Position numbers and translations under genes: made by a program | The notes under the pieces: model-generated | What the model was told of the DNA's origin: nothing | The model's input: only the letters and a program-made list of their open reading frames with translations | Databases searched by the model: none | IMG/VR virus record: IMGVR_UViG_3300032309_002614 | Span: 25,836 to 89,835 of that record | DNA: 64,000 nucleotides | Source of the DNA: a virus | Lineage: Duplodnaviria > Caudoviricetes | Strand: one strand, 5' to 3' | Part shown: piece by piece, positions 6,008 to 40,527 of the stretch | How positions within the stretch are numbered: position 1 is the stretch's first letter | How the letters are laid out: every line of letters starts with the position of its first letter

Positions 6008-6775
6008 TTGGACGACATGCTACCATTGTTTAAATCTCATTTCAGTATAGGAAAATCTATACTGACTTTAGATGATCCAAAGAAGGTCACTGAAGGAGGA
6101 TCTGATAGTGTATTTAAGATCGCGAAAGACAACGGTCTTAAACAGGTTATATTAGTCGAAGACTCGTTGATTGGATTCTTTGAAGCGTACAAGCGCAGCA
6201 AAGAAATGGGTATTCAATTAATATTTGGCCTAAGACTTTCAATGAGAAACTCTGCTCTTCCAGAAGATGAAGGCAGTCAACATAAAGTAATTATATTTGC
6301 TAAGGATGATATTGGGTGCAAGTTACTCAATAAAATCTATTCAAAAGCCTTTTGCACCAATTCTGGATTTCTAAGCTATAGCGACTTGAAGGAGTTGTGG
6401 AACGAAACTTCTCTCAAGCTCGCTATTCCATTTTATGATTCATTTATTTATATAAATAATCTATCTTTTGGAAATGCTGTTCCTGATCTTTCTTTCACTA
6501 AAGCTACTTTGTTTTACGAAGATAACGCCTTAGCTTTAGATTATATTCTTCAAGAGAAGGTAAAAGAATTTTCTATCAATAACGAGATGCCAATGGTTAA
6601 AGTTCGCAGTATTTATTACAATAAGAAATCTGATGTCAAAGCTTTTATGGCATACAAGATAATTTGTAATCGATCTTTCGGCAAAGACCGTTCACTAGAA
6701 AAACCAGAGTTGCCTCATTTTTGCAGCGATAAATTTAGTTTCGAAGCTTGGAAGGAAGAAAATGCTACGATTTAA
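6008..6775 (+). CDS. PHP domain of DNA polymerase III alpha, as a stand-alone gene
   Basis: FKSHFSIGKS, F....K..G...IFGL, IIFAKDDIGCKLLNKI; start TTG 6008 or ATG 6017; promoter TTGACA(5980)-N16-TAGAAT. Confidence 0.8.
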   Translation: MDDMLPLFKSHFSIGKSILTLDDPKKVTEGGSDSVFKIAKDNGLKQVILVEDSLIGFFEAYKRSKEMGIQLIFGLRLSMRNSALPEDEGSQHKVIIFAKDDIGCKLLNKIYSKAFCTNSGFLSYSDLKELWNETSLKLAIPFYDSFIYINNLSFGNAVPDLSFTKATLFYEDNALALDYILQEKVKEFSINNEMPMVKVRSIYYNKKSDVKAFMAYKIICNRSFGKDRSLEKPELPHFCSDKFSFEAWKEENATI

Positions 6776-7391
6776 TAAAGAACAAAAGTATATTTGTTTC
6801 GATTTTGAAACCTGTCATCTAAATCTGCTTGATGATAGCAATAAGCCTTGGCAATTAAGTTATCTGATTGCTAAAGGCAGCAATATACTTAAAGAAGTAG
6901 ATAATCATATCTATTGGCCCGATCTTAAGCTCTCAGAAGGAGCAAAGATTGTGACTCATTTTGATGAACGTAAATACCATTCGTTAGCTGCCGATCCAAA
7001 AGAAGTTCTGGAGGCTTTTGAAGATTATATTTATAATGATGAGTATCTGATTATTGGACAAAATCTATTGGGCTTTGATGTGTATATTCATAATACATAT
7101 AGAAGACTGATGGGTAAGAAAAGCGACTTCTCTTATGTTAAGAGAATTATAGATACAAACTGTATCGCTAAAGCTATTAAAAAGAATCTCAAACCTCAAA
7201 GAGATTCTGATTTTACTTTTTGGCAGTATAGATTAAATGATTTTCGCGAGAAAGGTCTAAAGACAAGCATTAAAACTCAGTTGAAAGAATACAAGATTGA
7301 CTTCGATGAGAACATGCTTCACAATTCCATGTACGACGTTCAGATGAATTTTAAGATTTTTCAGAAGCAGCTTTGGCAAATTGAAATATGA
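6762..7391 (+). CDS. DEDDh 3'-5' exonuclease (DnaQ/epsilon-like proofreading subunit)
   Basis: DFET (Exo I), GQNLLGFD (Exo II), HNSMYD (Exo III). Confidence 0.85.
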   Translation: MLRFNKEQKYICFDFETCHLNLLDDSNKPWQLSYLIAKGSNILKEVDNHIYWPDLKLSEGAKIVTHFDERKYHSLAADPKEVLEAFEDYIYNDEYLIIGQNLLGFDVYIHNTYRRLMGKKSDFSYVKRIIDTNCIAKAIKKNLKPQRDSDFTFWQYRLNDFREKGLKTSIKTQLKEYKIDFDENMLHNSMYDVQMNFKIFQKQLWQIEI

Positions 7392-9148
7392 ATTTTTTAC
7401 AAGACATTAAAACTTATGATAACGCCATGCTTCCCGGCGTTCGATTGCCACAAATCTCCATCGAAAGTAAATATTACGATTTGTTGAGCATACCCACTTC
7501 TTCAGATAATTTTACATTTCTGAAGACTTTGTGTTGCAAGAGTTTAAATAACTTAGGATTAAATAATAATCAATATGTTGAGCGAATGGAGATGGAATTG
7601 GAAATCTTCAGAGAGCTTGATTTCGTTGATTATGTACTTCTCAACTGGGATATTCTTAATTACTGCCATGAAAATAATATTCCAACTGGTGCTGGTCGTG
7701 GTAGTGCTGCGGGTTCTTTGGTTCTATTTATTGTGGGTGTTACGAAAGTTGATCCCATAAAATACGAACTATTCTTTGAGCGTTTCGTTAGCCGTTCTCG
7801 CGCTAAGAAGATTATCAAAGATGATATTACTTATCTTGATGGTTCTCTTCTTCCTGACGTAGATAACGATATCAGCTATGATAGACGCGCAGAAGTAATT
7901 AAGTATATTGAGCAGAAACATCTTGGCAAAACATCGAAGATCTTAACTCTCAATACTCTTTCTAGTAAGCTTTGTATTAAAGAGTGCGGAAAGATTGTTG
8001 GCGCTTTATCAGAAACAGATGTTAATGAAGTCAGTGACAATATTCCTAAATTATTTGGACGGGTTTTTGATTTGGAAGAGGCTTACAAAGCTAATGATAA
8101 ATTTAAAGCTTGGGTTGATCAAAATAAATTCGTATTTGAAATAGCTAAGAAGATCGAAGGACTGAATAAGAATACTGGTGTTCATCCTTCTGGTATTGCT
8201 ATTTCTTATTATAAGATCGAAGAAGTTTGCCCAGTTCAAAAGACTTCTGATGGTGATTTAGTTAGCGGCTATGATATGAATTATGTAGCCGAACTAATGG
8301 TTAAGTTCGATGTTCTTGGCTTGAGAACTTTGACTGTAGTCAGCGAAGTTTGTAAAAGACTTAATATTGAAATGACTTCTATTGATCCAGAAGATCCTTT
8401 CATTTACGAAAGCTTTCAGAATCTTCGTACTCCACAAGGTCTATTCCAAATTGAAGCGGAAACCAACTTCAAGGTATGCCGTAAAGTTAAGCCCAAGTCT
8501 CTTGAACAGCTTAGTGCGGTAGTTGCTATTGCTCGTCCCGGTGCATTGGACTTCGCTGATCAGTATGCTACATATTCAGCTTCAGGAGTATTTCAGCTTG
8601 TTCACGATTTCTTTAAAGAAGAGCTTTCATATACTGGTGGCATTCCTCTTTATCAAGAGCAGTTGATGAAGATGGCTGTGCGTTTGGGATTCACTCTTGA
8701 TGAGTCAGAGCAGTTGCGACGTATCGTTGGTAAAAAGAAGGTTGATCAAATGCCAGCATGGCAAGGAAAAATTCGTCAGAAAGTTACAGAGCAGAATTTA
8801 GATATAGCAATTGGAGACGTATTATGGAAGGTGGCTGAAGACTCAGCGAATTATTCATTTAACAAATGTTTATTACCAGAAACTGTAGTTGAAAGCAAAG
8901 ATGGTCTAAAATGTTTAAGTGAGATTAAAAAAGGAGATTCTGTTTTAGCTTATGATGTAGAAAATAATATTGATCATTTTGTACAAGTTGTAGATATTCA
9001 TAAGAATGAAGTTGAAGTCTACGAAGTGGAAATGGAAGACGGAACAAAAATTTGCTGTTCTATGGATCATAAATTTCTATGTGGAGATAAAAAAATGCAT
9101 ACTCTCAGAGATATTATTTCTCAACGTTTAGAGATTATGTGTAAATAA
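7388..9148 (+). CDS. dnaE: DNA polymerase III alpha N-terminal part fused to N-intein (split intein N-half)
   Basis: GRGSAAGSL, FERF, PDVDND, HPSG, VKFDVLGL, YQEQLM, NYSFNK then CLLPET intein block A. Confidence 0.95.
   Translation: MNFLQDIKTYDNAMLPGVRLPQISIESKYYDLLSIPTSSDNFTFLKTLCCKSLNNLGLNNNQYVERMEMELEIFRELDFVDYVLLNWDILNYCHENNIPTGAGRGSAAGSLVLFIVGVTKVDPIKYELFFERFVSRSRAKKIIKDDITYLDGSLLPDVDNDISYDRRAEVIKYIEQKHLGKTSKILTLNTLSSKLCIKECGKIVGALSETDVNEVSDNIPKLFGRVFDLEEAYKANDKFKAWVDQNKFVFEIAKKIEGLNKNTGVHPSGIAISYYKIEEVCPVQKTSDGDLVSGYDMNYVAELMVKFDVLGLRTLTVVSEVCKRLNIEMTSIDPEDPFIYESFQNLRTPQGLFQIEAETNFKVCRKVKPKSLEQLSAVVAIARPGALDFADQYATYSASGVFQLVHDFFKEELSYTGGIPLYQEQLMKMAVRLGFTLDESEQLRRIVGKKKVDQMPAWQGKIRQKVTEQNLDIAIGDVLWKVAEDSANYSFNKCLLPETVVESKDGLKCLSEIKKGDSVLAYDVENNIDHFVQVVDIHKNEVEVYEVEMEDGTKICCSMDHKFLCGDKKMHTLRDIISQRLEIMCK
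8867..9145 (+). mobile_element. Split intein N-fragment (93 aa)
   Basis: Starts with Cys (CLLPETVV), block B CSMDHKF, ends at stop codon; no endonuclease domain. Confidence 0.9.
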
Positions 9149-9152
9149 TAGC

Positions 9153-10100
9153 ATGAGCGTTTTTAAAGATGAAGGTTTAAAAAAAATCATACCTATAGAT
9201 ATTTTTAATTATTGTATAATAGACAAAAAAACAAAAAAAGAAATTACAAATCTATTTCCTTCTAGGAATGAAGGTATTTATTATTTAAATAAATTTATAA
9301 ATTTTTTATCAAAATATCATAAAATTTCTATTCAAGAATATATTGAAAAATATTTTAATGAAAAATGGCCTATTTGTCCAATATCTAAAGAACCAGTTGG
9401 CTATAAAACCACAGGAATTGGACTTGTTCTTTCTAAGTTTAAAAGAGGCAAAGTAGACAAAAACAATAGCGTGGCTTTTAGAAAAGCTTGTGAAAAGTTT
9501 TCCCAAGAAAGACTTGGTAAAAACAATCCTATGTATGGTAAAAAAGCTTGGAATACTGGATTAAAAAAAGAGACTGATGAAAGAGTGGCTATAGTAGCAA
9601 AAAAAAGAACTGGTAAAAAAATGTCTCAAGATTCAAAAGATAAAATGAAAGAAGCTAGAGAAAGACATCCTTTAAAAGCTAGGCACACTACAAAACATTC
9701 GGAAGAATCAAAAGAAAAAATGAGAAAAGCCACCATTAATCGTTGGCAAATTGGTGAATTTTCATTCAAAATTACTTCTATAGAGAAAAAAGTAGATCAA
9801 TGGCTTAAAAATAACTGCGTTAACTACGTTTTTCAACACGGTATCGGCGGTTTTGTTGCCGATTTCGTTTGCTTAGATGAAAAAATTATAATAGAATGTC
9901 AAGGAGACTTCTTCCATTGCAATCCGTGTTTTGAAAAATATGCAGAACCAAAATACGATATACAAAAAAGAAATCTATATAGAGATAAAATAAAGAAACA
10001 GAAGTATAAAGATTTAGGATGGAAGTTGATAGAATTGTGGGAAAGCGACATTAACTCTGGAGAATTTAAAAACATTTTAAGATGCGAACTCAAAAAATAA
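9153..10100 (+). mobile_element. Free-standing homing endonuclease (NUMOD3-type repeats plus Vsr-like/EDxHD nuclease) between the split-intein halves
   Basis: GKNNPMYGKKAWN, HSEESKEKMR, ADFVCLDEKIIIECQGDFFHCNP, D..K.......GW.L..LWE. Confidence 0.85.
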
Positions 10101-10195
10101 TTTCGATTAAACCTTTAGGTTTAAAAAATACTTTAGATTTAGAAGTTAACCATTCAGATCATAATTTTTATGCTGAAGGCTTAGTTTCTTCGAAC
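10082..10195 (+). mobile_element. Split intein C-fragment (38 aa)
   Basis: MRTQKIISIK..., block F TLDLEVNHSDHNF, block G VSSN followed by Ser+1 (SHS). Confidence 0.9.
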
Positions 10196-11269
10196 TCTCA
10201 CTCTATCTCTTATGCTATTTTGGCTGCGTGGACTGCTTATCTAAAATTCAAGTATCCGCATGAATTTTTCTTGGCATTGCTTCAGTTGTCTAAATATGAG
10301 CCTGATTCACATCAAGAAATTAACAAGATTTCAAAAGAGCTAGTATATTTTGATATCAAACTTTTACCTCCTGATCTAGCAAAATCTGCTCTTGATTTTA
10401 AGATTGAAGATGGCAATATTCGTTTTGGATTAAATTCTATTAAAGGCGTTTCTGAAAAGACGTTACAAGCTCTTCAGAGTTTCAGAGAAACGAATACTCC
10501 AACAAAGTTTGATATTTTTATCGCCGCTAAACAAGCTGGTATTAATATCGGTCTACTTTCTTCTTTAATTCAAGCTGGAACTCTAAGTTCATATACTCAT
10601 AGACGATCACGCTTAGTTCTTGAGGTGCAAACTTTTAATATCTTAACTGATAAAGAAAAGAAGTTCGCTTGTAGTGTTGGGCCTAAATATGACTATGATA
10701 TTTTAACTATCGTAAGTGAATGCGCTTTCAAGGGTCAATCTCTTAATGAAAGCGGTAAACCTTTCATGAATGAAAAGCGAAAAATTACATTCAAGAAAAA
10801 GTACGATGAATACAAGAAAATCTATGAACAGAACAAAGATCATGAGAAGTTCGCGAACTGGGTTTTTGAAAATAGGCTCTTAGGTTATACTCCAACTATT
10901 CGACTAAAGACTATTTTTCAGCAATCTGAGTGTACGTTTACAGATACAATGGAATTTCAATCTGCTTTTAAAGAAGACAGAGTAAAGATGGTTGGAGTGA
11001 TAGATGATGTTTATAAGGGCAAAACTAAAAAGTCTAATTCTACATTCTATAGATTCCAATTGAAAGATGAAGTTGGCAGCGTAAGTGCGATGTTTTTAGA
11101 TGGTGGAAAACACCAAAGATTAACAGAGTATCTTGAAGACGGTCTTAAAATTCCAGATAAGGAAAGTATTGTAGTTTTCACTGGCAGAAAGGGTGACGAT
11201 GTGCTATGGATAGAGAACATCGGAATCTTGGACGACAAGATCTACATGAAGTTATCTGACATAGAATGA
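10082..11269 (+). CDS. dnaE: C-intein fused to DNA polymerase III alpha C-terminal part
   Basis: SHSISYA..AYLK, LLPPDL..S, IRFGLNSIKGV, E...LGY, C-terminal OB-fold-like region. Confidence 0.93.
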   Translation: MRTQKIISIKPLGLKNTLDLEVNHSDHNFYAEGLVSSNSHSISYAILAAWTAYLKFKYPHEFFLALLQLSKYEPDSHQEINKISKELVYFDIKLLPPDLAKSALDFKIEDGNIRFGLNSIKGVSEKTLQALQSFRETNTPTKFDIFIAAKQAGINIGLLSSLIQAGTLSSYTHRRSRLVLEVQTFNILTDKEKKFACSVGPKYDYDILTIVSECAFKGQSLNESGKPFMNEKRKITFKKKYDEYKKIYEQNKDHEKFANWVFENRLLGYTPTIRLKTIFQQSECTFTDTMEFQSAFKEDRVKMVGVIDDVYKGKTKKSNSTFYRFQLKDEVGSVSAMFLDGGKHQRLTEYLEDGLKIPDKESIVVFTGRKGDDVLWIENIGILDDKIYMKLSDIE

Positions 11270-13671
11270 AAAATTTAAATTTAACACCAAGAGCGCAAAA
11301 GCTAATCAAAGAAGCTTATAAAATAGCTGTAGATCTCAAGCATACAGAGATCACGCATCTTCATTTATTTATAAGTTTTTTGAATCTTAAGCAGAGTCAG
11401 ATAGAAGAAGCATTTGGAAATTTTGGCATAGATTCTTTAAAAATAAAAAACAGTGCTATAACATTTTTAAAAATCAACACTACAGCACAAAAGAAAGCGG
11501 TAACTAAACCTTTATTATCTGAAGGCATAAAGACTATTTTTAAATGCGCCAAAACTATATCTTCAAAATTTGATCATAAATATATTGGACTAGAACATGT
11601 ATTTTTAAGTTTATTTGAAGTTCCTAATCAAACTTTTGAACTTTACTTGATTGATTATAATTATGATTTTGTTAAAGTCGTGGACTATGTTGAGCAAAAG
11701 CTAGAAGATGATGATATGTTACCAAGCGTTGAGGAGGAAATAAACAGTCCTAATGAAGCGAAACAAACTTTTGATATAAAGAAGTATAAGGTTTTAAATA
11801 CTTATGCTAATAATCTTAATATACAAGTTGTTAATGGTAAAATAAATAATCTACATCTTAATAAAGAACTGATTCAAAAGATCTCAGAAGTTCTTTGTCG
11901 CAAAAATAAGAATAATCCACTTATTGTAGGCGAAGCTGGTGTTGGTAAAACAGCTTTAGTCGAATCATTAGCGCAAGCCATCGTTAAAGGTGAGGCTTCC
12001 GATCTGCTTAGTCTAAAGCAGATTTATAGCTTGGATATTCCAATGATGATTGCTGGTTGTAAATTTCGTGGTGAATTCGAAGAGAAGATTAAAAACCTTT
12101 TAAAAGAAATCACAGATGATCCATATATTGTTCTGTTTATAGATGAAATCCACACAATCATTGGTGCTGGAAATCCAGAAAATGGCAACGATGTTGCTAA
12201 TATTCTAAAGCCTTATTTAGCTAGAGGAGAAATTAGCTGCATTGGTGCTACTACTTTCGACGAATACAAGAAGACTATATCTGATGACCCAGCTTTATCT
12301 AGGCGTTTTCAGATTATTAAAATCGAAGAACCCACTAAAGAACAAACCTTTAATTTAATCAAGAATATTAAAGGTGGATATGAAAATTTTCATGTCATAG
12401 ATTTTTCTGATGATGTTATTCATTTTATCATTAATAGTGCTGAAAAGTATATTGAAGGAAGATTTCCTGACAAAGCTTTAGATATTATTGATCAAGTAGG
12501 AGCTAAAGTTAAATTAAAGAATTTTATAAAGTCTCCTGAAATGCTTAAAATAGAAAAGAAGCTCAGTAAATTTGTTGATTCTAACAAGCAAATACGAGAT
12601 AAGAAAAAGATTACTTCTTTAGAAGATCTTCTTATCGAGTATGAAGAGTCTACAAAAAAGATGATTGCTAATTGGCGCAATAACAGATATCAAGTTACAA
12701 ATTCAGACATATTAGAAGTCGTCTCTGATAAAACCAATATTCCGGTTAATGATTTAAAATTACAAGACTTTGATAAAGTCAAGTTACTTAAAACCAGACT
12801 AAAAGAACAAGTACTTGGTCAAGACAATCAAATAGAACATATATATAAATGTTTAATAAGAGCGAAAGCTGGTTTTCGAAATCCAAATAAGCCTATTTGT
12901 TCAATGCTTTATGCTGGGCCGACAGGCGTTGGAAAAACAATGACTGCAAAAATAATTGCAGAAACTATATTTATAAATAAGAATAATTTTATAACAATTG
13001 ACATGTCTGAATACACAGACAAGACCGCCGTAAATAAACTAGTTGGATCTAGTCCCGGTTATATTGGATTTGATAAAGGTGGAGTATTAACTGAAAAGGT
13101 AAGAAAGAATCCATATTCTTTAATTCTTTTCGATGAAATTCAAAAAGCCGATCAAGATGTTTTGTACTCTTTGTTACAAATCCTTGAAGAAGGAAAGATA
13201 ACAGACTCTTCTGGAAAGACGGTTGATTTCTCTAACACTATGATTGTTATGACAACTAATATCGGTGCTGAAGTCGTCAATCATTCTGCTATAGGATTTG
13301 GAAAGCAGAAAGCTGGCAAATCTGATGTCCTTTCTTCTATCAAAAAGCATTTTCCACCTGATTTGTTAAACCGTATTGATGAAGTAGTTATTTTTGAGAG
13401 TCTTGAGCAAGAACAAATTAAATTAATCATTGATAAAGAATTACAATTATTTAAAACAGATCTAGCAGATAGAAATGTCAATATTAAATATTCTCCAGAA
13501 ATAACTAACTTTATTTTTGATAAAATACAATTTAATAACTTTGGCGCACGACAAGTTATTAAAACTATTCAACGAGAACTGCAAACACAAGTTGCAGAAA
13601 AAATGCTTGATTCTGATGAAAAATTAAATTTGGAAATTTCAGTTAAAGACAACAATATTTGTGTAATTTAA
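11266..13671 (+). CDS. ClpA/ClpC-family double AAA+ ATPase (Hsp100)
   Basis: Clp N-domain, [40 protein letters not shown] loop. Confidence 0.92.
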
Positions 13672-13883: not shown

Positions 13884-15032
13884 ATGAACGATCATAATCC
13901 TATTTACGGTATGAATCCAAATCCTCCAGTATCAAACGATACGTTTGATTTTGCGATGCCAGATATTCCTGAGCCTCCTCAATCAGAAAAACCAGAACCA
14001 AAGGACAAAGATGCGGTTGGTTTTAAATTTGGCTTTATTGGTGCTGGTCAAGGTGGCGGCAAACTAGCTGAAACGTTCTCTCAAATTGGTTATGCTCGCG
14101 TTGGCGTAATTAATACTGCTGATCAAGATCTTGCTACTATCAATGTACCAAACAAGATGAAGTTTGGTGAGCAACAAGGAGCGGGTAAGAATAGAGAGTT
14201 TGCTAAACAAGCTTTCTTGAATAGTAAAGAAGATGTCGTTGATTTTATTAAATCTTCTGTTGGTACGGATATTGATCGTATTTTTGTAACAGTTGGTGCT
14301 GGTGGTGGAACTGGTGCTGGTGTTTGCTCCGAACTTGTTAAGACGGTTAAGGAATATCAAAATACTGTAAAGGCAAGTTCTCCTTATGTTGGTCTAATTC
14401 TCGCTCTGCCAAAGCTTTCTGAAGGTAAGAAAGTTAGTCAAAATGCTTACGAGACACTAAAGGAAGCTTGTGAACTAGTAGAGCAAAAGATTGTTTCTCC
14501 TCTTATTATTCTTGATAATGAAAGAATTAATACTCTTTATCCAAAGCTATCTGTAAATAAATTCTGGCAAGTTGCAAATGCCAATATTTGTTCTCTATTC
14601 CACTTGTTTAATAATATTATAACAAAGAATAGTCAATATAGCACATTCGATACAAATGATTTCAGAACTGTTCTCGATTCTGGTATTATGGTTTTTGGTG
14701 CAGCTAACATTACTAATCATAGCAGTGAAGCCGAAATCAGTAAGGCAGTACGCGAAAATCTCAAGAGAAATGTTTTGTGCGGCGAACTTGATCTTTCTAC
14801 TGGTAGCACCGCTGCTGCTGTGGCTATTTGTGACGAAAAGACGTTAGACTATATTCCTCAAGAATACCTAGACAATGCTTTTAATCAATTAAATAGAACT
14901 TTAAAGACTAACAGCACGGTTCATCAAGGTGTTTACAAGGGTGTTAAAGAAGGTCTTTCTATTTTTACTGCAATTGGCGGCATCACGACTCCAACTGGTA
15001 AACTAGAAGCTCTTCTAAAAGCTAGTCAATAA
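13884..15032 (+). CDS. Tubulin/FtsZ-family GTPase (PhuZ/TubZ-like)
   Basis: GAGQGGG (T1), INTAD, GAGKN, tubulin signature GAGGGTGAG, LDNE, D..DFRTVL. Confidence 0.9.
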   Translation: MNDHNPIYGMNPNPPVSNDTFDFAMPDIPEPPQSEKPEPKDKDAVGFKFGFIGAGQGGGKLAETFSQIGYARVGVINTADQDLATINVPNKMKFGEQQGAGKNREFAKQAFLNSKEDVVDFIKSSVGTDIDRIFVTVGAGGGTGAGVCSELVKTVKEYQNTVKASSPYVGLILALPKLSEGKKVSQNAYETLKEACELVEQKIVSPLIILDNERINTLYPKLSVNKFWQVANANICSLFHLFNNIITKNSQYSTFDTNDFRTVLDSGIMVFGAANITNHSSEAEISKAVRENLKRNVLCGELDLSTGSTAAAVAICDEKTLDYIPQEYLDNAFNQLNRTLKTNSTVHQGVYKGVKEGLSIFTAIGGITTPTGKLEALLKASQ

Positions 15033-25719: not shown

Positions 25720-25901
25720 ACCCGTCTGAATTCGAAAGAACAAAATCAGTCAACATTTTTAAAAAAATAAAAGAGCTAGAAAAACTAATTAAAGAAGAAC
25801 AAGTAAAAACTGAAAATCTTTATGCAAACCGCATTGCCACTCTTGATACGATGTTAAAAGGTATTCATGACCTCATGTACACATTTAAAAAAGGCGAATA
25901 G
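25716..25901 (+). CDS. Hypothetical protein
   Basis: 61-aa coupled ORF. Confidence 0.65.
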   Translation: MNPSEFERTKSVNIFKKIKELEKLIKEEQVKTENLYANRIATLDTMLKGIHDLMYTFKKGE

Positions 25902-39433: not shown

Positions 39434-39825
39434 GTTATTATTTATTTTTAGATGATATTCGTTCGATTTCTGATGTCAGAAAATATTGTAATTTACCGAA
39501 TATAAATGACGAAGAGTGGACGGTTGTACGAAGCTACAAGGAATTTGTAGATTTAATCATATTGAGAGGAGTTCCTCAATTTGTATCTTTAGATCATGAT
39601 CTTGGAATTTCTTCATATTCAGAATGTTCTAATTCTGTTAAAAATGGTTATATAAACTACGAAAATATATGTGAAATGACTGGTTATGATGCCGCTAAAT
39701 GGTTGGTCGAGTATTGTATTCATAATAAATTAAAATTTCCACGTTATCAAGTCCACTCTATGAACCCCGTGGGAAAATGTAATATAGAATCTTATATAGA
39801 GTCATATTTTAGCAGTTATGCCTAG
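39430..39825 (+). CDS. Cyclic-phosphate-processing receiver-like domain protein
   Basis: LFLDD.R, VRSY.EF, SLDHDLG, TGYD.AKWL, HSMNPVG. Confidence 0.75.
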   Translation: MSYYLFLDDIRSISDVRKYCNLPNINDEEWTVVRSYKEFVDLIILRGVPQFVSLDHDLGISSYSECSNSVKNGYINYENICEMTGYDAAKWLVEYCIHNKLKFPRYQVHSMNPVGKCNIESYIESYFSSYA

Positions 39826-40527
39826 AAGATGTTTCCATAAATGACCATTACGAATACTTGATATGTTTGAGGTAGACATGTTAAATTTTTTTGACAATTC
39901 TACTCCACTGCCTCTATATTTTGGATAATTTCTAATATATGAAATATCTTCTTCAGATAGATTTGTGTGAGCTTCTCTTATGGCGCGTTTTGTCTCTTCA
40001 GTGTGAGTTTTTCCAAAAAAATTATTCTTTTCTCCAAGTTTAGCGGCGCGTAATTTTTTTATAGTTTCTTCACTCGGAGACTTACCAAACATAGGATGCG
40101 ATGATCCGGTTTGAGCTTTACTCATTTTGATTTTAGTTTCAATTGAATGTGGAACTCCTTTGTTAGGAGCGACTCTGCCTTTTAATTTTTTACTCAATTT
40201 TTTTCTAACGTCATCAGTAAATTCAACAGATCCAGCGATGAATGAAAGATTATAACATTTATCTTGTTCATTTTTTGCTGCATCCAAAAAACTTTGTTCA
40301 ACATCAATCAGTTCAGATCTATCAGATGTGCATTCTTTTATTATGATAAATTCAAAATTGCTCTCTCCATATTTGTTCCACGCATGTTGAAGTTTTAAAT
40401 TTTTATGAATTTGTTTATTAAGAGTCCGTCTATGCTGCGTCCATCTTATAAAAATATTTTTAGAACTTCCAACATAATACTTTCCATTTAATTTATTAAT
40501 TATTTTATATATTCCGCTTATTTTCAT
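39802..40527 (-). mobile_element. GIY-YIG homing endonuclease with NUMOD3 repeats
   Basis: SGIYKI.N..NGKYYVGSS, R..QH, EQ, YN; HSIETKIKMS, HTEETK. Confidence 0.92.

Follow-up and report, generated by a model that had tools for sequence, protein, structure and literature searches.

The stretch of DNA analysed here (hereafter, the window) comprises 64,000 nucleotides (nt) of the IMG/VR virus record IMGVR_UViG_3300032309_002614 (positions 25,836 to 89,835; Caudoviricetes) and carries a DNA polymerase gene, dnaE, that is broken in two. Two dnaE open reading frames (ORFs) on the same strand each include one half of an intein, the N-terminal half (IntN) at the upstream ORF's end and the C-terminal half (IntC) at the start of the downstream one, and a free-standing homing endonuclease ORF is located between them (Table 1). 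This layout corresponds to the fractured-gene arrangement defined by Dassa et al. 2009 (PMC2677866), who attributed such loci mainly to phages. The likeness to the fractured genes of marine metagenomes had been pointed out in a preliminary description of this DNA, and all ORFs, intein halves and residues listed there were recovered at the same positions.

Table 1. Features of the fractured dnaE locus and its surroundings, in window coordinates (aa, amino acids)
Feature	Position	Strand	Description
PHP-domain ORF of the polymerase	6008-6775	+	255 aa; Pfam PHP, E-value 1.5e-5
DEDDh/RNase_T-type exonuclease ORF	6762-7391	+	209 aa; Pfam RNase_T, E-value 3.4e-6; follows the PHP ORF and precedes the polymerase core
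dnaE N-part and N-intein ORF	7388-9148	+	586 aa; 493-aa extein and 93-aa IntN
dnaE N-extein	7388-8866	+	493 aa; DNA_pol3_alpha NTPase domain and fingers; C-terminal end ...SANYSFNK
N-intein (IntN)	8867-9148 including TAA stop (coding 8867-9145)	+	93 aa, Cys1 CLLPET...IMCK; block B CCSMDHKF
GTGTAA-N8-ATG gene-start signal of the endonuclease gene	9139-9155	+	within the last IntN codons ATG TGT AAA TAA
Free-standing homing endonuclease gene	9153-10100	+	315 aa; frame other than that of the dnaE ORFs
IntC and dnaE C-part ORF	10082-11269	+	395 aa; 38-aa IntC and 357-aa extein
C-intein (IntC)	10082-10195	+	38 aa, MRTQKI...DLEVNHSDHNFYAEGLVSSN; first 19 nt inside the endonuclease 3' end
dnaE C-extein	10196-11269	+	357 aa from Ser+1 (SHSISYA...); includes HhH domain
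Near-identity tract with contig L001	8660-10363	not applicable	cassette plus extein flanks of 207 nt (left) and 168 nt (right)

The N-extein matched the Pfam families DNA_pol3_alpha (E-value 2.1e-57) and the finger domain (2.6e-29), and the C-extein matched HHH_6 (1.1e-15). The first 38 residues of the downstream ORF end in HNFYAEGLVSSN (...GLVSSN) and are followed directly by SHSISYA. Scanning IMG/VR with this C-terminal ORF retrieved 26 related contigs (L001-L026), onto which the individual parts of the locus were then mapped by tblastn. In 24 of the 26, the match began at residue 39, the Ser that follows the intein, and the end of the N-extein abutted the start of the C-extein, with no IntN, endonuclease or IntC; the extein proteins of these intein-less relatives were up to 98.6% identical to those of the window. 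All 24 empty alleles read LWKV(A/L)EDSANYSFNK followed by SHSI, corresponding to a NYSFNK-SHSISYA join, and in L002 (4522-7074) the gene translates to a single 850-aa dnaE ORF. Because the intein-less relatives join FNK directly to SHS, the FNK|SHS splice junctions are real rather than a chance reading, and, at the level of sequence, the empty alleles prove both of them. The 850-aa polymerase core is interrupted after Lys493, directly before Ser494, within the conserved finger motif YSFNK|SHS, and this polymerase (493 + 357 aa) is the product to be expected from trans-splicing of the window halves. The fractured layout was present only in L001 and L014 among the related contigs, that is, in 3 of 27 genomes when the window is counted. 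Cultured-phage records contained no close relative, with a top tblastn identity of ~32%.

As proposed in the preliminary description, the insertion lies four residues downstream of the cyanobacterial split site: the C-extein of wild-type Ssp DnaE begins with CFNK (PMC2664965), whereas here FNK belongs to the N-extein. The assertion that this is not the Npu/Ssp allele also holds. The Ssp and Npu inteins are inserted at Y|CFNK rather than FNK|SHS, have Cys rather than the Ser of SHS at position +1, and their halves are encoded at distant loci without an endonuclease, whereas the halves in the window are 936 nt apart with the endonuclease gene between them. Nevertheless, the Ssp and Npu DnaE inteins occupy the same host protein and finger motif, are the nearest relatives with solved structures, and share with the window Cys1, a block B of the form xxDHKF, a block F with DHNF and an IntC of ~36-38 aa; yet only about one-third of residues are identical between the Npu and window IntN over their aligned part, as counted from the PDB alignment. 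For the Pol III alpha fingers, Novikova et al. 2016 described an intein hot spot in which several sites fall within 75 residues.

The intein halves retain the features of the HINT fold. In phmmer searches of the PDB, IntN matched the IntN of Npu DnaE (E-value 1.2e-6) and gp41-1 (2e-4), and a profile of the junction and IntN from 21 loci returned the same two inteins with E-values of 1.1e-13 and 1.3e-10, respectively. Cys1 directly follows FNK and is invariant in all 21 loci. The SMDHKF segment of IntN pairs with TKDHKF of Npu DnaE (block B, SxxH), and across the 21 loci the His of this block is invariant, with Ser or Thr in the first position in every case. IntC aligns with the C-terminal segments (blocks F/G) of the Spl DnaX, Npu DnaE and gp41-1 inteins; here, DLEVNHSDHNFYAEGLVSSN, followed by Ser+1, contains both the D..HNF motif and the terminal Asn. 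The D...HNF/terminal Asn/+1 pattern is kept in all fractured and contiguous relatives, and conservation across the loci extends to the IntC length of 38 and to its terminal SN. Joined together, IntN and IntC (131 aa) are colinear with contiguous mini-inteins of 127-141 aa found at the same dnaE site, and in this alignment the break maps to the short, variable linker that connects blocks B and F. All of the class-1 splicing residues that were checked are present, and these intact residues, together with the purifying selection described below, indirectly support the predicted trans-splicing activity of the two halves. The preliminary description had singled out the penultimate Ser together with Ser+1. 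Both are indeed present, but the penultimate Ser is not unusual: it is conserved throughout this intein family, and we rejected it as a special feature because the IntC of Npu DnaE likewise ends with ...IASN.

Selection was assessed from ratios of nonsynonymous to synonymous substitution rates (dN/dS), calculated by the Nei-Gojobori method for two pairs of loci. For the window versus L014, the ratios were 0.20 for IntN, 0.18 for the endonuclease and 0.18 for IntC, and for L035 versus L037 those of the two intein halves were 0.06 and 0.07. All three parts of the cassette are under purifying selection, as the range of 0.06-0.20 indicates. These values bear on a different account of the locus, whereby the intein halves are catalytically dead and serve as a non-covalent dimerisation handle for the two DnaE pieces, much as the halves of the intein-less split nrdA of phage Aeh1 come together. 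Fractured genes that lack an intein do exist, namely Aeh1 nrdA and an SbcD-like locus (PMC2677866), and the window intein has Ser in place of Thr in block B and Ser in place of His in the penultimate position. However, every nucleophile is present, as are the histidines of blocks B and F, and in very divergent loci they are invariant or nearly so; the dN/dS values are low throughout, Npu DnaE splices very fast with the same penultimate Ser, and 131 additional residues inside the conserved finger motif would probably disturb the polymerase. We consider a dead intein highly improbable.

The 315-aa protein encoded between the halves matched NUMOD3 (E-value 3.4e-5) and DUF559/MTES_1575 in Pfam. 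Its N-terminal part is a DNA-binding region that contains NUMOD3, and a nuclease domain of the Vsr-like (EDxHD) type makes up the C-terminal part (approximately residues 204-315). The NUMOD3 region holds a conserved GxxNPMYG...WN motif, of which G..N is invariant in an alignment of 33 homologues; in the same alignment, E248, H255 and D278 do not vary, D237 is nearly invariant (at least 90%), and the window enzyme has D252 within a GDFFH motif. The protein aligned to Escherichia coli Vsr (1cw0) with an E-value of 0.003, with the catalytic residues matching up. An AlphaFold2 model with a predicted local distance difference test score (pLDDT) of 88.5 had Vsr (1cw0, 8.8e-5; 1vsr, 2.4e-4) and the catalytic domain of I-Bth0305I (3r3p, 2.9e-4; template modelling (TM) score 0.74-0.77) as its top Foldseek matches in the PDB. 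On the strength of the conserved catalytic residues and the predicted match to the Vsr and I-Bth0305I folds, the endonuclease belongs to the Vsr-like/EDxHD homing endonuclease family of Dassa et al. 2009 and Taylor et al. 2011, in agreement with the earlier assignment as a free-standing nuclease with NUMOD3 and a Vsr/EDxHD-like domain. It would be expected to make site-specific double-strand cuts in the empty allele, for which the presence/absence polymorphism among the related contigs and the co-conversion-like tract described below offer indirect support. The prototype of the EDxHD family is I-Bth0305I (PDB 3R3P; PMC3239194), which has in common with the window enzyme the Vsr-like catalytic fold, the conserved E/D/H/D residues and an N-terminal NUMOD-type DNA-binding region. 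In contrast to the window enzyme, which is free-standing in a split intein and carries NUMOD3, I-Bth0305I is encoded in a recA group I intron and has NUMOD2 repeats, and phmmer did not link the two by sequence. Homologues of the window endonuclease fell into 78 clusters, many of them exactly 315 aa long, with metagenomes as their sole source.

A footprint of mobility is apparent from the comparison with L001. In an ungapped alignment, the window and L001 differ by a single mismatch across positions 8660-10363, including the 1329-nt cassette, whereas outside this tract most dnaE bins differ at 2-24 sites per 100 nt. Accordingly, the synonymous divergence (dS) between the two phages is 0.26 and 0.64 in the exteins and ~0 within the element. 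Since the element is near-identical while the flanking dnaE has diverged, the tract fits a recent homing transfer with co-conversion of ~207 and 168 nt of flanking sequence. Compared with the nearest empty alleles (L002, L003 and L024), the window has 19 mismatches in the 100 nt directly upstream of the insertion site, compared with 0-3 for each 100 nt between -700 and -100. This divergence spike is suggestive of homing but not proof of it, because the related phages are mosaic elsewhere too. If the endonuclease were inactive or domesticated, the cassette would have been inherited vertically or by general recombination, with the intein still splicing. Such a scenario would be in keeping with the general mosaicism of these phages and with the presence of the cassette in as few as 3 of the 27 close relatives, and cleavage is itself something that we infer. 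It sits poorly with the near-identity of the cassette and ~170-200 nt of flank between phages whose dnaE genes have otherwise diverged (dS 0.26-0.64), with the purifying selection on the endonuclease (0.18) and with its intact catalytic set, and we regard it as very unlikely.

To the explanation that the locus is an assembly or sequencing artefact, in which two spurious stops interrupt one contiguous, endonuclease-containing intein, we give virtually no credence. The N and C ORFs of dnaE do share a frame, and the gap of 936 nt between IntN and IntC is a multiple of 3. However, the endonuclease gene occupies another frame and has a start signal of its own, the three-ORF layout recurs in independent assemblies (L001 and L014) and in ~20 divergent loci, and 81 representative protein clusters stop right after IntN. 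Gap lengths in the divergent loci are often not multiples of 3, and we rejected the in-frame gap of the window as meaningful on this ground. Erroneous stops, which the preliminary description had named as a finding that could overturn its reading, are thus excluded by the same architecture in independently assembled genomes.

The hexamer GTGTAA, followed after 8-9 nt by ATG, precedes eight ORFs on the plus strand (window positions 2085, 9139, 15033, 21679, 23035, 24046, 32575 and 43548), compared to ~1 expected from 500 shuffles, and the arrangement was not found on the minus strand of the window. The genes behind the motif include the virion protein gene, rIIB and the intein-borne endonuclease gene, and the motif is probably a phage promoter or gene-start signal. 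A related start motif precedes the endonuclease ATG in most of the divergent fractured loci. Because this motif is written in the last IntN codons, it probably accounts for the conserved (M/V)-C-(K/N) end of IntN. The IntC ORF has no GTGTAA signal, and its start lies inside the endonuclease ORF, the two overlapping by 19 nt (10082-10100); given this overlap, the three ORFs are probably translated by sequential termination-reinitiation coupling. Two other candidate signals were rejected: no significant sigma-70 promoter was found before the endonuclease gene, where we looked for one, and the T4 late box TATAAATA is absent from the endonuclease start.

Taken together, we consider it very probable that the window carries a fractured phage dnaE in which a 131-aa class-1 mini-intein has been split by a free-standing Vsr-like (EDxHD) homing endonuclease gene. 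In this scheme, the endonuclease gene would have landed in the loop between block B and block F, cutting the intein in two, and would begin behind the phage's own GTGTAA-N8-ATG signal. The phage would produce DnaE-N-IntN (586 aa) and IntC-DnaE-C (395 aa), the intein halves would associate into the HINT fold, and Cys1, Ser/His of block B, Asp/His of block F, the terminal Asn and Ser+1 would perform protein trans-splicing, yielding the same 850-aa polymerase that the intein-less sister phages encode directly. In co-infecting relatives, the endonuclease would cut the intein-less dnaE near the FNK|SHS coding site, and repair would copy the IntN-endonuclease-IntC cassette, along with ~170-200 nt of flank, into the cut allele; it is the footprint of this last step that is seen in the comparison with L001.

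Several points weigh against this interpretation. Block B of the window intein has Ser where Thr is usual, and searches of the PDB and of the literature found no characterised member of the FNK|SH allele; for every member of the allele, splicing and DNA cleavage are deduced from sequence. The related phages are mosaic at other places, as in a bin with 19 mismatches located 1.4 kb upstream. In addition, folding of positions 9085-9185 yielded no significant RNA hairpin before the endonuclease start (z -1.0), unlike the loci of Dassa et al., where a hairpin, often with a late-promoter box, lies 5' of the endonuclease in 15 of 16 cases, although this feature is not strictly defining (PMC2677866).

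The allele is widespread. A profile scan of viral contigs uncovered ~23 further divergent loci with the dnaE-IntN/endonuclease/IntC-dnaE layout at the same site, with endonuclease identities down to ~28-29%. The 315-aa endonuclease clade lies at this dnaE site wherever context is visible, whereas more distant relatives of the enzyme are found in other places, where the neighbouring ORFs are unrelated and intein halves are missing. With IntN as query, phmmer returned 541 matches among 1.84 billion representative proteins, 94 of them below 1e-10. Among the best 150 of the 541, 106 have a Y-x-F-N-K|C type junction; 81 of these end 89-106 residues past the Cys and represent split forms, and another 19 carry an uninterrupted intein of 127-165 aa (127-141 aa in 18 cases) with an SN|SH end, within one DnaE. 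Some metagenomic proteins have an endonuclease fused in frame to IntN, which is Vsr-like in P0119 and of the NUMOD4+HNH type in P0133 and P0185, indicating that different endonuclease families invaded the same intein. A scan of cellular genomes with a narrow pattern also detected IntN relatives in three contigs of metagenome-assembled genomes (L110-L112, from Verrucomicrobiales, Paceibacteria and Paludibacteraceae).

Fractured dnaE genes at non-cyanobacterial sites are not new in kind, being already described by Dassa et al. 2009 (PMC2677866), who list three such loci from Global Ocean Sampling (GOS) metagenomes, DnaE-1, DnaE-2 and DnaE-3, with sites that differ from one another and from the cyanobacterial one. 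The window locus resembles them in its non-cyanobacterial site and in the overlap of the endonuclease 3' end with the downstream half, which measures 6-69 bp in those fractured loci, and it resembles DnaE-2 in the length of the endonuclease, described there as Vsr-like up to residue 315. Because of this length match, and because the 315-aa clade lies at the FNK|SH site, DnaE-2 may be this very allele, which would then have been reported already. Compared with these loci, the window contributes the setting of a whole phage together with sister genomes that lack the intein. A full-text literature search found no specific report of a phage dnaE split intein or of the FNKSH motif. The split inteins gp41-1, NrdJ-1 and IMPDH-1 share with the window the origin in, and arrangement of, a fractured phage gene, the Cys1/Ser+1 pair and the small size of the halves (~88-105 and 33-54 aa), but they reside in other host genes and have been biochemically characterised. 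The window pair, which the preliminary description had suggested may be a new orthogonal split intein, is only possibly that, its nearest relatives of solved structure being the Npu DnaE and gp41-1 inteins. Lastly, in phage Aeh1 an essential replication-related gene, nrdA, is likewise cut by a free-standing endonuclease gene, mobE, the 3' end of which overlaps the downstream half; in that case, however, there is no intein, and the halves reassemble non-covalently.

A 135-aa metagenomic protein, P0223, combines the cyanobacterial site and the FNK|SH site: it consists of an IntC (...LVTSN), the four-residue extein CFNK and an IntN (CLSK...). Both halves are similar to Ssp/Npu DnaE, with an E-value of 4e-15 to a permuted construct, and the protein would be the central part of a DnaE made in three pieces or, alternatively, a natural topology of the cyclisation type. 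From this layout it appears that both dnaE sites can be occupied at once, leaving a four-residue middle extein. No such tandem piece was found in the scan of viral contigs.

A broader idea is that the phage inteins at FNK|SH and the cyanobacterial DnaE split inteins form one lineage at two sites four residues apart, with phage genes as the reservoir. The Npu and Ssp DnaE inteins are the best solved matches to the FNK|SH family, the penultimate Ser is common to Npu DnaE and this family, and P0223 has Ssp/Npu-like intein halves at both sites; these three observations favour the idea, but we regard the idea as doubtful and advance it tentatively. If it were true, phage fractured dnaE would be the source of the cyanobacterial split dnaE.

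The same phage lineage is found both with and without the cassette. This amounts to a clean comparison, supplied by nature, of a fractured gene before and after the event, and it reveals the exact homing site, how long the co-conversion tract is and which spliced product is expected. At a single site, the allele family, large and abundant in metagenomes, covers all stages of the proposed gene-breaking pathway, including contiguous mini-inteins, the free-standing Vsr-like endonuclease, the endonuclease-IntN fusion and HNH instead of Vsr-like enzymes, and thus is a good system for testing that pathway. It also offers a small candidate split intein of the Cys1/Ser+1 type (93 + 38 aa) that is a relative of Npu DnaE and gp41-1 but differs from both, as well as an EDxHD endonuclease for which a candidate target has been defined.

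Its gene content shows the window to be of phage origin: genes are present for a UvsX-like recombinase, DnaB-like helicase, primase and virion structural protein, along with rIIA/rIIB and 7 tRNA genes. The PHP domain, the DEDDh exonuclease and the polymerase core are encoded as separate overlapping ORFs, in the same order, in all 26 related loci, with ~340-360 additional nt between the PHP match and the exonuclease ORF in L012-L014, L018-L022 and L025. Downstream, a gene for a ClpA/ClpB-type double AAA+ ATPase (11266-13671) overlaps the stop of the dnaE C-part, and a 382-aa ORF at 13884-15032 has no PHROG match. A second free-standing homing endonuclease gene (39802-40527, minus strand) lies on the strand opposite to its neighbours and encodes a 241-aa protein in which NUMOD3-like repeats come after an N-terminal GIY-YIG motif (GIYKI...YVGSS).

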